The notes below the pieces were generated by a model that did not search any database, was not told the origin of the DNA, and saw only the letters and a program-made list of their open reading frames with translations. Shown here one piece after another: positions 8,805 through 22,997 of a stretch of DNA of 64,000 nucleotides. The position numbers and the translations under genes are program-made. This DNA is from an uncultured virus (IMG/VR IMGVR_UViG_2648501751_000004) (taxonomy: Duplodnaviria; Heunggongvirae; Uroviricota; Caudoviricetes), in the IMG/VR virus record IMGVR_UViG_2648501751_000004. The stretch is one strand, 5' to 3'. Each line of letters opens with the position of its first letter. The stretch's first letter is position 1.

Positions 8805-9677
8805 CTAGGCGGCTTCACCATTGAGGATGTGTCGCACGGCGCCTTCCGGGCTCTGCACTCCGTGCACCCTCAGCTCCTGCTGATCTGCCTCTTCCACGAG
8901 CTCGTGGAACACTTCGTAAACCCGGTTGATGTCGCTCTCGCTGAAGCTGGGGTCGTTCTTGCCCGGTCGATACAGGATCAGCTCGAAGTTTTCGATCTGA
9001 AACAGTCCGGTATGGCCCTTATCCCTCAGGGAGATCAACTCCCACATCTTTGACTTGGCGGTTCGGTTATAGGTGGACAGTCCATTGCCTGGCACGATTC
9101 TGGAAAGCTGCGCCACGTAGTTTCCACCCACATAGTCAAACGTTGTGGGAGATCCGCCGGTGTAGAGCTGCAGTTTGCGGCTGAAATTGCGCACCAGTTC
9201 CGGGTGCTCCTGAGCCATCGCCTCTTTCACCTGGGTGAGCCATCGATCCGATACGGTCACCTCCACATCGTCATCGGCAGTGAAATCGGCCATACGACTG
9301 AGAAAGGCGCTGTTCCTCGCAGTTGTTCGAAGCATCATGGTCAGGTCTTCAACCCGCCCGGATCTGGCTTCGCCGGGATAAACTCCGGTCATAGGTGGTT
9401 GCCAGGTGCCCAGCACCGCTCCGGTTTTCAGGTGGTGCTCCAGACTGTTGACGACCAAGTTAATCATTTCCAGAAAGCCCGGTCCCGCGTGGCCCAGCAT
9501 GCACTTGGCTGTCGATTCCCGAATAACGGGCACCACTTTATAAGCCCGGTCAGCCCCTTGCGCTGCTACCGCGACGCACAGCCGTTCCCCTGAACCGGCT
9601 ATGGGCTCCATGAATACGGCCATACCCTCGGCCTGGTATTGTGGAAGCTCTGGGAATGGAGAGCTTTTGGCAGTCAT
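8805..9677 (-). CDS. Hypothetical partner of HipA-like kinase (DUF3037-like N-terminus suspected)
   Basis: ATGA-coupled to the kinase; EPIAGSGERLCVAV motif. Confidence 0.7.
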   Translation of the reverse strand: MTAKSSPFPELPQYQAEGMAVFMEPIAGSGERLCVAVAAQGADRAYKVVPVIRESTAKCMLGHAGPGFLEMINLVVNSLEHHLKTGAVLGTWQPPMTGVYPGEARSGRVEDLTMMLRTTARNSAFLSRMADFTADDDVEVTVSDRWLTQVKEAMAQEHPELVRNFSRKLQLYTGGSPTTFDYVGGNYVAQLSRIVPGNGLSTYNRTAKSKMWELISLRDKGHTGLFQIENFELILYRPGKNDPSFSESDINRVYEVFHELVEEADQQELRVHGVQSPEGAVRHILNGEAA

Positions 9678-10423
9678 GGCAGAAGACCCAGTTGGTTACC
9701 GTGCCTGGCAAGCAGTGCCGGCATCTTGGAAAGTCGCGTTTCCAATGATGATAGCGTATCCCGGCACCGTTCATACATCCCAATATATTCACTTTGCGAA
9801 GCAATCTGGATCTCTTCCGGGTCAATTTGCCGGCACCTGGCCGCGAATGGACCACTATTTCTATGCATTCGTGCCGGGCCCAGGTCGCCCTCCCAGTCTC
9901 TTATGCAGCCAGCGAGAATATTTTCGCACGGAAGGTCCGCCTTCGGCTCTTTGAGCGTCGACCACAGGGATAGCGCATGGTCGATCAGCACCCAGTTATC
10001 CTCTCCACCCCACAGAAGATTGCCGCCATGCCTGTCCGGGTTGGCTATCCACTCGTCAAACAATGCCACCTCATGAAGCTTGTCCCAGCTCGACAGCATC
10101 TGGACGACAACGGGGTCGTGGCGATTAAGCCACTGCTTGATGGAGGGTGCGCCAGCGTCCTCGCTCCCTGAGAAATAACCTCCGCCAAGCAGATCGCCCG
10201 GGTCGCGAACGATATACGCCCTACTCACCGGCAACCCCAGCTCTGTCGCCAGCAGGGACGCCAGGCATTCGGCCAAGATCTCCTCTTTGGTGGTTTTCTT
10301 GACGTACAGGCGCCGGTCACCCTCATGTGTAAGGGCGTCGGCAACCCATACCTCTGAAACATTATCCAGCCCTTCAAGGCGGCGTGGCTCGGTATACAGG
10401 GTCGCAAACCCAATAGGCTGCAT
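9674..10423 (-). CDS. HipA-like Ser/Thr kinase
   Basis: LYVKK...E..AE.LA..LA..LGLP, FDEWIANPDRHGGNLL, LIDHA; RBS AGGAG at end of cI. Confidence 0.85.
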   Translation of the reverse strand: MQPIGFATLYTEPRRLEGLDNVSEVWVADALTHEGDRRLYVKKTTKEEILAECLASLLATELGLPVSRAYIVRDPGDLLGGGYFSGSEDAGAPSIKQWLNRHDPVVVQMLSSWDKLHEVALFDEWIANPDRHGGNLLWGGEDNWVLIDHALSLWSTLKEPKADLPCENILAGCIRDWEGDLGPARMHRNSGPFAARCRQIDPEEIQIASQSEYIGMYERCRDTLSSLETRLSKMPALLARHGNQLGLLP

Positions 10424-10427
10424 AGCC

Positions 10428-10910
10428 TTACTCCTTTGCTGCGATCCTATTGGCGATCTGTGTGAGTAGATTAATGTCGGCATCAGTCAGCCGCCCATCC
10501 GCGGCCGCTTCGGCGATCTGCATCAGCTGCTTGTACGACCTGAGGGTGGCCTTTGATAAAAGCGCGGAAAATTCCGGCGGCACATTTGCTGGCGGATTAT
10601 CAGAACCAGGTGCGTAGGGTTGGCCAGTAAATTCAAAGTCGGCAATTCCGTGTTTCGAAAGCTCTGCAGCCAACCTGGGCGAGATATCGGAGGGGCTTAC
10701 GTCTAATGCGCGAGATATTTTAAGCAGAGCTGGGAGCCCAATCGGGATCTTCCCGTTCAGATATTGATTGAACGCACCCTGAGTTTTCCAGCCACAGCGA
10801 TATGCAACCTCTTCTTGTGAGATTTTCCCTTTAAATTCGAGCTCCCATAGGCGCTTAAGCCTCTTGGAATCGGCAATTTGTTCTTCGGACAAGTTCCGCT
10901 TGGTCTCCAT
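10428..10910 (-). CDS. cI: CI-like repressor (HTH, no S24 peptidase domain)
   Basis: LSEEQIADSKRLKRLW...SQEEVAYRCGWKTQGAFNQYLNGKIP resembles lambda CI N-domain; divergent from cro. Confidence 0.88.
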   Translation of the reverse strand: METKRNLSEEQIADSKRLKRLWELEFKGKISQEEVAYRCGWKTQGAFNQYLNGKIPIGLPALLKISRALDVSPSDISPRLAAELSKHGIADFEFTGQPYAPGSDNPPANVPPEFSALLSKATLRSYKQLMQIAEAAADGRLTDADINLLTQIANRIAAKE

Positions 10911-10920
10911 TACGGCATTG

Positions 10921-10987
10921 AATAGCAAAACTATTACCTCGCACAAATAGCAATACTATTGATCTCTGGTAATAGCATCACTAATAT
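10921..10987. promoter_or_regulatory. OR: three operators at 25-bp period, with PR
   Basis: AATAGCAAAACTATT 10921, AATAGCAATACTATT 10946, AATAGCATCACTAAT 10971; PR TTGATC(10959)-17-TAATAT(10982). Confidence 0.85.
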
Positions 10988-10995
10988 CTCAGATC

Positions 10996-11352
10996 ATGAA
11001 GACACTACGCGCATACATGGCCCGCAACCGGGTCACTCAACGGCAGCTTGCTGAGCACCTGAAGGTTACTCAGGGGCTGATCTATCAATGGCTTTCGGGG
11101 CATCGGAAGGTCTCCGCCGAAAAAGTTCTTTCGGTTTGCGAAGCCACCGACTGGCAAATCACCCCCCACGAACTTCGTCCGGACATCTACCCAAACCAAA
11201 CAGACGGCATTCCAATCGAGCTGTCTGCTGACTTTTGGGACCGCCGGAGGGCTGAGCGCCGGGCCGCTGAACGCCGAGACGGAGAACGACGCGATCACGA
11301 GCGCCGGGGGCCAGACTCTCCTGTCGATCACGGCCCGGAGGATGCCGCCTGA
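10996..11352 (+). CDS. cro: Cro/YdaS-family regulator with Arg-rich C-terminal repeats
   Basis: TQRQLAEHLKVTQGLIYQWLSG...ITPHELRPDIY. Confidence 0.88.
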   Translation: MKTLRAYMARNRVTQRQLAEHLKVTQGLIYQWLSGHRKVSAEKVLSVCEATDWQITPHELRPDIYPNQTDGIPIELSADFWDRRRAERRAAERRDGERRDHERRGPDSPVDHGPEDAA

Positions 11353-11374
11353 TGGTTTCCATTGAACCACTTAC

Positions 11375-11785
11375 GGGCTGGCGGGATACCCGTCTGACTG
11401 CGGGTGTATATCTGTACAGGGTTTGAGTGAAGCGCGAGCTGCAGCGCTATCAGAAGCAGCCGGTAAAGCTGGCCAGGCAGAGGATCGCCGAGGTGCCGAC
11501 ATTGCAGCCGGGGACAGGGTCCCGGCGATAGAACGCCAGCAGACTGAGGCAAAGGTTCCCACGACCACCGCCCTCGCTGATCAGTCCGACTGACTCCCGC
11601 AAGGAGTCCGTATCCCCAACTTGTAAGGATTTCTTACACGTTCGGGATGCGTAAAGGGTTGGGAGTTTCCCGGCCGACGCATAAACCGCAATGACATTGC
11701 GAACTTGTGGCTCCCACCGGTAGGGGGTCTGGGCTGCCTCCCTTCAAAAGGCATACGGCGGTGGTACCGGATAACCCGCCAGCTA
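11375..11785 (+). ncRNA. Candidate large structured non-coding RNA
   Basis: No credible ORF; terminal helix 11377-11385/11775-11783, long-range helix 11564-11572/11757-11765, many local hairpins; ends at the tRNA 5' end. Confidence 0.55.
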
Positions 11786-11862
11786 TGCAGGCATGGAGAA
11801 ACGGTGTCTCGCTGGGCTCATAACCCGGATATCGGAGGGTTCGACTCCCTCGCCTGCTACCA
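11786..11862 (+). tRNA. Phage tRNA-Met (CAT), initiator-type, slightly non-canonical
   Basis: Acceptor (T)GCAGGC/GCCTGC(T)-ACCA, D stem GAGA/TCTC, anticodon arm CTGGG-CTCATAA-CCCGG, T arm GAGGG-TTCGACT-CCCTC. Confidence 0.85.
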
Positions 11863-11882
11863 CCAAACAAAGGTTTTCGAAA

Positions 11883-12083
11883 ATGACACTGGAAGAGCTG
11901 CTGAGAACGAAGAAAAAGGGCATCAACGGCGTGAGCAAGCGGGAAGTAGAGGTGCCGCTCACTTTCGTTGTCGATATCGGCCAGGAGCGAGAGGACGGAG
12001 TCCACTTCTACATCCACCCAGCCGATGAAAATGGCGAGACCCTGGACTTCCTTGTGAAGGGCAATGAGCTCACACCGATTTAA
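11883..12083 (+). CDS. Hypothetical phage protein
   Basis: ORF after tRNA, overlaps next gene. Confidence 0.55.
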   Translation: MTLEELLRTKKKGINGVSKREVEVPLTFVVDIGQEREDGVHFYIHPADENGETLDFLVKGNELTPI

Positions 12084-12279
12084 GTCTCTCGGCGAGTGGA
12101 ATGCATACGTCGCCGCCGGCGCCGATCGGGAAGAGAGAAAGGCCAGGCTGGCGGAGTGTCCGGAGTCACTACGAGAAAACGTGACATGTCACGTTAAGAC
12201 AGTTTTTGAATTACGCAGTCGGAGCAGGCAATGCCAGAAAAACTCGAAATCATCCTTCCCTGGCCGCACAAGGCCCTGA
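12064..12279 (+). CDS. Hypothetical phage protein
   Basis: Operon context. Confidence 0.6.
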   Translation: MSSHRFKSLGEWNAYVAAGADREERKARLAECPESLRENVTCHVKTVFELRSRSRQCQKNSKSSFPGRTRP

Positions 12280-17270: not shown

Positions 17271-17294
17271 GCCCGCCACTGAGCGGGCTTTTTT
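17271..17294 (+). terminator. Intrinsic terminator before the endolysin
   Basis: GCCCGC-CACTGA-GCGGGC-TTTTTT. Confidence 0.7.
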
Positions 17295-22951: not shown

Positions 22952-22975
22952 CGGGCACCGCTAAGCACCTTCACA

Positions 22976-22997
22976 GCCGCCTTCGGGCGGTTTTTTT
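22976..22997 (+). terminator. Hairpin/terminator between protease and capsid
   Basis: GCCGCC-TTCG-GGCGGT-TTTTTT. Confidence 0.65.

Follow-up and report, generated by a model that had tools for sequence, protein, structure and literature searches.

A candidate family of modular, pseudoknot-rich RNAs directly downstream of cro in lambdoid Marinobacter prophages

GOLLD and ROOL are large RNAs with complex folds that are carried by prophages and are sometimes found beside tRNA genes. The nutR element of lambda (boxA/boxB) and putR of HK022 are cis-acting antitermination RNAs of the early-right transcript, situated just downstream of cro, and the c4 RNA of phage P1 and the CI RNA of phage P4 are antisense immunity RNAs of ~80 nucleotides (nt) with ends made by RNase P. 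An element that invites comparison with all of these lies in a 64,000-nt stretch of DNA from an uncultured member of the Caudoviricetes (IMG/VR record IMGVR_UViG_2648501751_000004), the whole of which is referred to here as the window. Positions 11428-11785 of the window, downstream of a cro-like gene, very probably represent a real, uncatalogued family of structured RNA, as judged from comparison with related loci. The RNA is ~360 nt long, modular, pseudoknot-rich and non-coding, and is read from the + strand, co-oriented with cro. It is built from a core of ~225 nt, the variable P5 arm and a 3' domain that comprises P6/P6a, P7, a small pseudoknot and two kissing hairpins, and its predicted folded architecture, P1-P9, is conserved and covarying among relatives.

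The preliminary description of this locus had proposed a large structured non-coding RNA on the + strand, and for 11428-11785 that proposal is borne out by covariation in relatives and by a bias in G.U pairs. RNAalifold places 42 pairs in the core. In an alignment of 25 sequences (A2), 97.1% of cells are paired as compared to 88.4% in shuffles, and 14 pairs carry double changes, a number reached by 2 of 500 shuffles and set beside 2-4 in slid controls. In a model-fitted alignment of 42 loci with 31 distinct sequences (A4), double changes occur in 21 of the 42 core pairs (132 cells), a result that none of 500 shuffles reaches and for which slid controls give 3-7. The best-supported helices are P2b, P3, P3a and P4. 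Because G.U and U.G pairs abound in the core alignments and A.C pairs are scarce, the RNA can be assigned to the + strand, on which cro is also read. The + strand also folds better than shuffled sequence, with a minimum free energy (MFE) of -177.4 kcal/mol versus -158.0 +/- 6.1 in dinucleotide shuffles (z -3.2; of 100 shuffles, one was as low), and the corresponding z value for the - strand is -2.0.

As the preliminary description had supposed, the RNA corresponds to no known family. Searches of Rfam 15 recover only tRNA, both in the whole window at the gathering threshold and in 11200-12000 at E<=10, and ten relatives searched at E<=1 yield only tRNA-type and chance matches; by the Rfam 15 covariance models the element does not belong to GOLLD, ROOL, HEARO, C4, T-box, riboswitches or group I/II introns. 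Full-text searching of the literature, which returned listings and the openings of abstracts, gave no description of this RNA. In kind, and not as a homologous family, a large multi-helix covarying fold in a prophage early region, with a tRNA sometimes adjacent, is that of a GOLLD/ROOL-like ornate phage RNA. It is highly improbable that the region is instead the remnant of a protein gene, perhaps one analogous to cII, or that it works as DNA, say as an origin or a group of operators. Individual sequences do have open frames of 34-62 codons, and in many loci the P1 region reads KRELQRYQKQPVKLA in frame with a 24-codon micro-ORF (open reading frame) that precedes the RNA, but across the 25 aligned cores none of the three frames stays open or is conserved, each either meeting stops or shifting from one subgroup to another. 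The frame is displaced by indels of 4, 1 and 2 nt even though the nucleotides remain conserved, with the 4-nt indels altering the downstream peptide, and in L003 the frame is lost by a shift. Compensatory changes, together with G.U pairs on one strand, are likewise unfit for sites in duplex DNA.

The preliminary description had drawn the RNA as a single ORF-free domain of ~410 nt (11375-11785), held together by a closing helix, GCUGGCGGG/CCCGCCAGC (11377-85/11775-83), and a nested 9-base pair (bp) helix (11564-72/11757-65). Freedom from ORFs holds for 11428-11785 and fails upstream of it: by its conservation among relatives, 11352-11426, a 75-nt segment that overlaps the cro stop, is a coding micro-ORF and not RNA structure. 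Among 18 loci with a TGATG or TGAGGGTG junction, 12 keep the length of the micro-ORF, the position of its stop and a similar peptide (MVSIKPLRSWRNTRLTTGGYLYRV), and changes are codon-wise (CGT/CGC/CGG; TRLT, TRFS, TQFS and THFS). The micro-ORF is disrupted by a premature stop in L051 and by a frameshift in L070, and in genome G118 a homologous SGSGYLYS segment sits within the Cro-like ORF itself. The peptide has no PHROG match. In four loci (L012, L014, L031 and L092) the micro-ORF and the core are set apart by genes on the opposite strand.

A single ~410-nt domain is improbable in the light of these data. Both long-range helices are perfect in the window and are present in its MFE fold, and an end helix of at least 9 bp arises in 13 of 2000 shuffles, but the ends of the region had been set by that very helix, and 10.5% of shuffles have at least two perfect inverted repeats of 9 bp. 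In the closing helix, the 5' strand (GCTGGCGGG, 11377-85) is coding, corresponding to the G-W-R codons of the micro-ORF (G/S-W-R), and the 3' strand pairs locally in P9 with 11757-61. Of 13 distinct loci with the 3' word, 9 do keep the 5' word ~150 nt upstream of the core anchor, but it is displaced by ~430 nt of inserted genes in two and lost in two (L036 and L079), and L003, L014, L035 and L091 have the 5' word without the 3' word. CTGGCGG is in any case a frequent word in these loci. No compensatory change is seen in the closing helix, but the local CCGCC/GGCGG pairing of P9 shows two, in L205. In the nested helix, ACCUCCGCC variants are uncompensated by our reading of the sequences, and its 3' strand overlaps P9. 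With a coding 5' strand, independent loss of the two words, no compensation and the overlap with P9, both long-range helices are unsupported, and the unit is best taken to start at ~11428.

All the stems listed in the preliminary description are present in the window, and its local stems have proved to be conserved, namely those at 11508-26 (P2b), 11592-608 (P4), 11609-51 (P5), 11657-75 (P6a) and 11687-701 (P7). Within the core (Table 1), hairpin P1 is weakly supported by the sequences, being invariant in type A cores and showing double changes in 4 of 9 pairs in A4, all from the divergent core types B (L016, L100 and L157) and C (L189 and L202). Helix P2 encloses two invariant junction strands, GUGCCGACAUUGCAG and CGAUAGAAC, and two hairpins, of which P2a is missing in L004 and L015 and takes covarying GNRA forms elsewhere, and P2b has double changes in all five of its pairs in A4; 4-nt and other non-triplet indels are also found in the P2 region. 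Double changes in 7 of 9 pairs of P3 and 2 of 3 pairs of P3a (for example ACUGA/UCAGU, GCGA/UCGC and GUGG/CCAC) are accompanied by many G.U pairs and few A.C, and in P4, where 3 of 4 pairs have double changes, the loop is GUAA, GCAA, GAAA or GAAAGA.

To judge from the loci compared, the P5 arm is variable and a hot spot for insertions, and the modules 3' of it are interchangeable. The arm ranges in length from ~40 nt in the window to ~190 nt in relatives. In the window a short tip (11616-42) stands in place of the branched, 60-190-nt tip of relatives, and it is a 26/27 match to the coding sequence of an unrelated gene (…ATCKDFLQVQ…; …ATCKDFLQVQSEGG…). Because of this match the arm is read as replaced and shortened, and the tip looks like a captured fragment substituting for the normal one; tip matches of 26-27 nt (93-96%) are found in 8 other genomes of the genus. 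Other tips resemble tRNA: that of L031 (1295-1421, - strand) is hit by the Rfam tRNA model with 29.7 bits over 127 nt, and that of L189 has a perfect T-arm, CCUGGUUCAACUCCAGG. In L009-type loci a ~370-nt insertion ends in a second P5 arm that is 83% identical over 116 nt to that of L016. A tandem second core in these loci was considered and rejected, as only the second P5/P6 is homologous to L016 and the other ~200 nt are without detectable relation.

The 3' domain begins with P6, the 5' strand of which overlaps seg2, the 3' strand of P5. P6 takes several forms (GAUGCGU/ACGCAUC, GGUGUGU/ACACGCC, GCGUAG/CUACGC and GUUGC/GCAAC), and compensatory forms occur in 25 different flank contexts, among which ~8 represent chance or coding matches. 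The sequence of P6a, by comparison, is conserved in core types A, B and C and in unrelated contigs. P7 has a covarying stem with the loop kept (GCAAC/GUUGC in L010, CAGC/GCUG in L012, GCGC/GCGC in L204), and both P6a and P7 are present as one copy in the window. Downstream of P7, an alignment of 15 sequences (A3) covering P8, the loop-loop pairing and P9 has 97.9% of cells paired, and the 3 positions that vary on both sides are all compensated, as in none of 500 shuffles; the changes are CCGGUA/UACCGG to CCGGCA/UGCCGG and GGCGG/CCGCC to GUCAG/CUGAC. The inner pseudoknot shows, by eye, three forms: GGG/CCC with GCCU/AGGC, CCGG/CCGG with UGGCA/UGCCA, and UGG/CCA with AACCU/AGGUU. In other loci the terminal part is swapped for unrelated sequences that are able to form the same H-type topology.

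In the window the RNA ends at a tRNA-Met gene, as first described, but this is not a defining feature of the family. Bacterial initiator tRNAs are marked by a 1:72 mismatch and by three G:C pairs at the base of the anticodon stem, and on inspection the window tRNA has both, with a U1.U72 mismatch and G29-31:C39-41, as well as A73 and an encoded CCA. In 7 of 30 loci scanned, 3 of the 30 being repeats of other loci, the 3' domain is followed by a tRNA-Met after a 2-nt spacer, and in L003 a different tRNA-Met, without the initiator hallmarks, lies directly after P5. Most relatives have neither a tRNA nor a terminator after the element, and the next Shine-Dalgarno sequence and start codon (SD/ATG) are found ~10-40 nt past the 3' pseudoknot.

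Several other identities were considered and rejected. The RNase P RNA model RF00010 matches only the host gene on contig 2, with which the element shares only 7-8-mers, and ARAGORN finds no tmRNA. A T-box was suggested by GGUGGUACCG in the P9 loop, but most relatives have GGUGAUACC there and Rfam gives no T-box match. A SAM-I-like word, CCCGGCAACC, in the 3' variant of L010 and L011 is treated as chance because L011 has no Rfam match. A CsrA/RsmA sponge was suggested by several AAGG/GGA motifs, but repeated GGA-loop hairpins are not present.

As far as searched, the core is a feature of Marinobacter prophages, because the true core matches fall there. BLAST against 191 genomes of the genus gives 22 with matches at E<=1e-3, of which 13 are real homologues, including the window's own genome; 8 others match just the 26-27-nt hairpin-tip piece and one is a chance 29-mer. 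A composite pattern run on one genome per species (GTDB) finds 12 loci, 10 of them confirmed by the covariance model; nine of these are titled Marinobacter, and the tenth, in a metagenome-assembled genome (MAG) titled 'Legionellales', has a core score identical to that of a Marinobacter MAG locus. The core covariance model (R1) has 7 true matches in 151 genomes of the family, all within the genus. In IMG/VR, 17 of 63 loci from a 16-mer scan are real, as is 1 of 70 from a scan with type B 16-mers (L157), and a viral scan with a P7 pattern one N longer than P7 gave 4 loci, one of which was useful (L189).

The remaining 46 of the 63 IMG/VR matches, as well as the genome pattern matches L105 and L113, were dismissed as chance. 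Weak covariance-model matches at 20-25 bits (L101, L102 and L103) are false, with only a P1-like part matched; L101 falls within an ORF of 484 aa, and L102 has the look of coding sequence. The phage GenBank collection (blastn, distant mode) returned 286 records, all Vibrio phages and all matching the tRNA part only.

The P6a hairpin is found more widely than the core. A metagenome scan for P6a finds 27 loci, 15 with the core, a corresponding scan of IMG/VR finds 16 loci, and several of the core-less loci keep P6/P6a with different P6 sequences. A GGGUUGGGAG-NN-CCCGGCC hairpin within a covarying helix is seen in the core-less, phage-like metagenome contigs L204, L208, L222, L191/L226, L198 and L220. 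L204 and L208 have a P7-like GCGC-AAUGAC-GCGC hairpin just before SD/ATG, and in L222 the SD/ATG is ~50 nt downstream, such that in these three unrelated contigs P6a (with or without P7) is the 5' leader of a protein gene. L191 and L198 have a terminator, and in L220 a tRNA follows ~190 nt downstream. Because it is present in core-less contigs, the P6a hairpin is read as a wider signal in phage early regions.

What the RNA does is best approached from its position. The preliminary description had placed it in the cII position, but in the window and most relatives it lies directly after the cro-like helix-turn-helix (HTH) gene, or after that gene and the micro-ORF, as it also does in the divergent L205 and L189; we take this to be the place of nutR/tR1 in lambda. 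The explanation we favour overall, with less than even confidence, is that this modular, pseudoknot-rich RNA of an uncatalogued family is carried in the early-right (cro) transcript of lambdoid Marinobacter prophages and acts in cis on that transcript. Transcription would start at the cro promoter, and the RNA, immediately after cro and the coupled micro-ORF, would act in cis at the nutR/tR1 place in readthrough, processing or translation control of the following early gene. The cis role is favoured because of the fixed place after cro, the lack of a promoter or terminator belonging to the element in most copies, the variable nature of the following gene (RusA-like, secreted protein, RdgC-like by our reading, or small ORFs), and the use of the P6a/P7 module as a leader elsewhere. 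In this phage, cutting by RNase P at 11785/11786 would also free the 3' end of the RNA; because the tRNA adjoins the RNA here, a cut at the tRNA 5' end would define the RNA 3' end. This step follows from the general working of RNase P and would apply to this phage, not to the family as a trait.

The main rival to a cis role, though on balance an unlikely one, is a stable trans-acting RNA of the ornate GOLLD/ROOL type, excised by RNase P, a terminator or other RNases and acting during lytic growth, for example in translation or tRNA biology, or as a multimeric particle. Much in the build of the element would suit such an RNA: its size and modular growth, as in the P5 tip and the L009-type insertion; the GNRA loops, pseudoknots and kissing loops; the tRNA-like inserts in P5; the tRNA that directly follows in some loci and comes after P5 in L003; and the terminator-ended variants L189, L191 and L198. 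Set against this are the lack of an Rfam match to GOLLD, ROOL or another family, the absence of a 3' tRNA or terminator in most loci, where the element runs into the next SD/ATG, and the related-prophage contigs of RNA libraries, in which a discrete RNA is not seen. More doubtful still is a reading in which the element is chiefly a signal between early cistrons for processing by RNase III/RNase E and for stability, and the rest is dispensable decoration. RNase III sites of T7 early mRNA consist of a stem, an internal loop and a stem, an arrangement to which P6/P6a can be likened: the 7-bp P6, the asymmetric internal loop and the 8-bp P6a persist where all else differs, and the element is intercistronic in a polycistronic early operon. 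Such a signal would not, however, explain the ~225-nt covarying core with its invariant junction strands, or why P6a, tandem U.G pairs included, is so strictly conserved in sequence.

A cis-acting element could also be a switch. GAUGCG (11646-51) forms the last six bases of the 3' strand of P5 and is also the 5' strand of P6, and seg1 (CGUAUC) and seg3 (CGCAU[C/A]) are near-copies of each other; this candidate switch segment would pair either with seg1 (11609-14) in the P5 arm or with seg3 (11677-82) in the P6/P6a hairpin. All three segments change together in L012 (GGUAUCU / AGAUGCC / GGCAUC), in L072 (CACACCC / GGGUGUG / GCACC) and in L189, and the seventh pair of P6, which lies outside the overlap, is U-A, G-C and A-U in the main type, L010 and L011. 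This three-way covariation suggests the pattern expected of a two-state element, short of proof, and alternation between the two pairings is a possibility that we regard as somewhat doubtful. A more elaborate version, quite unlikely as it stands, is a class of bistable RNA that replaces lambda N/nut, in which the core would set the choice between P5 and P6 and so expose or hide a platform made up of seg3, P7 and the pseudoknot. The state of this platform would decide readthrough of the early-right transcript into the delayed-early genes, or their translation. The bistable RNA may act without protein, or its RNA-binding partner may be the Arg-rich tail of the neighbouring Cro-like protein. That tail (aa 81-104, WDRRRAERRAAERRDGERRDHERR; window 11236-11307) strikes us as reminiscent of the arginine-rich RNA-binding motif of lambda N. 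A similar tail is present in the Cro-like protein of G118; it is absent in related prophages, the contigs of which skip 11192-11344, and the Cro of L009-type loci stops sooner.

A number of observations weigh against an early-right, cis-acting RNA as outlined above. The only material in RNA libraries consists of assembled contigs of related prophages, and the same libraries also hold contigs of >100 kb; public runs with the stretch contain 25-38% of its sampled words, with neither the transcript nor its ends visible, and this material counts neither for nor against a transcript. Unlike nut and put, there is no second copy in the leftward operon, as the core model and the P6a and P7 motifs each occur once in 64 kb. 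A scan for promoters and terminators called no sigma-70-like promoter or terminator near the element, the cro promoter being one identified by eye. A4 was fitted to the model and so leans towards structure, and all the covariation of the 3' terminal domain in A3 comes from the single sequence L205. With respect to the switch, P5 is closed and seg3 unpaired in the MFE folds of 15 of 16 relatives, the window MFE fold also closes P5, and in L189 and L092 the P5 and P6 helices stand side by side, so that a switch is not forced. Lastly, L189, L191 and L198 end in a strong intrinsic terminator, and these terminators, together with the opposite-strand genes of L012, L014, L031 and L092, mean that an autonomous RNA fits as well as a leader does.

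Table 1. Features of the cro-proximal region of the window
Feature	Position	Strand	Description	Basis or remark
cI-like HTH gene	10428-10946	-		Divergent from cro-like gene
Cro/YdaS-like HTH gene	10996-11352	+		Directly 5' of element
Micro-ORF	11352-11426	+	24 codons, MVSIEPLTGWRDTRLTAGVYLYRV, then stop; TGA at 11424-26	ATG overlaps cro stop (TGATG, 11350-54)
P1 hairpin	11432-11464	+	GCGCGAGCUGC / GCAGCCGGU	RNAalifold
P2 helix	11468-11540	+	GCUGGC 11468-73 / GCCAGC 11535-40	Invariant
P2a hairpin	11476-89		Inside P2	Optional
Conserved strand	11493-507		GUGCCGACAUUGCAG, inside P2
P2b hairpin	11508-25		Inside P2
Conserved strand	11526-34		CGAUAGAAC, inside P2
P3 helix	11541-11586	+	11541-49 / 11573-86, with inner hairpin P3a 11553-69
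P4 hairpin	11592-11608	+	GACUCC-CGCAA-GGAGUC	GNRA-type loop
P5 arm	11609-11652	+	seg1 CGUAUCCCC (11609-17) / seg2 GGGAUGCG(U) (11644-52)
P6 helix	11646-11682	+	AUGCGU 11646-51 / ACGCAU 11677-82	Encloses P6a
P6a hairpin	11657-75	+	GGUUGGGA-GUU-UCCCGGCC	Tandem U.G pairs
P7 hairpin and strand	11687-11708	+	CGCAAU-GAC-AUUGCG, loop motif (A/G)AUGACA; then conserved strand GAACUUGU
3' terminal domain	11711-11783	+	P8, H-type pseudoknot, P9, P8-P9 kissing loops
P8 hairpin	11711-27	+	CUCCC-ACCGGUA-GGGGG
Small pseudoknot	11729-53	+	H-type
P9 hairpin	11757-61 / 11776-80	+	GGCGG / CCGCC; loop UACCGG (11765-70)	Loop kisses P8 loop CCGGUA
tRNA-Met (CAU)	11786-11862	+	Initiator-like; 2 nt past RNA	ARAGORN; Rfam tRNA 39.1 bits

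The surrounding gene order recurs in relatives: a cI-like HTH gene on the - strand, the Cro/YdaS-like HTH gene on the + strand, the micro-ORF, the RNA, the tRNA and two small ORFs, followed by genes for a RusA-like resolvase, a Rha/antirepressor and an HNH-domain protein. The Cro-like protein matches Pfam YdaS_toxin (2.3e-14) and HTH_3, and the PHROG repressor family phrog_35 (8e-23). In the spacer between cI and cro (10920-10995), three AATAGCAAnACTATT-type inverted repeats, likely operators, can be made out by eye, as can a TTGATC-17-TAATAT promoter-like site that ends a few bases before the cro ATG; with a promoter so near the ATG, the cro mRNA would be nearly leaderless. The promoter scan made no call in this spacer. 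Beside the cI-like repressor, on the - strand (8805-10483), are a HipA_2-like kinase gene (Pfam 5.1e-10) and a phrog_21150 gene (2.6e-41), possibly a toxin or defence pair carried by the prophage. At 12179-12194, ~35 nt upstream of the RusA-like gene, is the perfect 16-bp palindrome ACGTGACATGTCACGT, and its core, CGTGACA(C/T)GTCACG, is found at the same place in nearly all related loci; it is likely an operator or promoter element of the next transcription unit. Further downstream in the prophage, two strong intrinsic-terminator-like sites on the + strand (17271-17288 and 22975-22992), each with a GC-rich stem followed by T6-7, may be the ends of operons or points at which antitermination is required.

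Only a small number of large RNAs with complex, conserved folds are known from bacteria and phages, and every one of them has led to new biology. The RNA described here occupies a fixed place in the early decision circuit of temperate phages, and were it to control readthrough or translation of the early operon, it would be an RNA solution to a job done by N/nut or put in classical lambdoid phages. Were it a stable particle, it would be a proteobacterial addition to the orphan 'ornate' RNAs. The P6a hairpin, which is conserved in phage contigs that are otherwise unrelated, may serve more widely as a recognition signal.

How does the element compare with the systems it most resembles? Like GOLLD and ROOL (bioRxiv 10.1101/2024.12.08.627333), it is a large RNA with a complex fold that is carried by prophages and sometimes adjacent to a tRNA, but it is without a sequence or structure match to either, is smaller (~360 nt here), belongs to Gammaproteobacteria (Marinobacter) and has a fixed place after cro, with most copies running into a protein gene and not a tRNA. 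The tRNA 2 nt downstream in the window would give the RNA the same 3' end chemistry as the phage P1 c4 and phage P4 CI RNAs, although Rfam gives no C4 match and the tRNA is absent from most family members. As a structured RNA between cistrons of a long operon, it is like the processive antiterminator EAR (eps-associated RNA), from which it differs in phylum and fold and in the absence of an Rfam match, the functional parallel being a conjecture. With nutR and putR it shares its position as an RNA element of the early transcript, immediately past cro and ahead of the delayed-early genes, and a conserved single strand precedes P7, the loop of which, (U)GACA(A), recalls to us the GACAA loop of P22 boxB. 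Unlike nutR and putR, it has no boxA consensus, is present as a single copy in 64 kb, and is many times larger.

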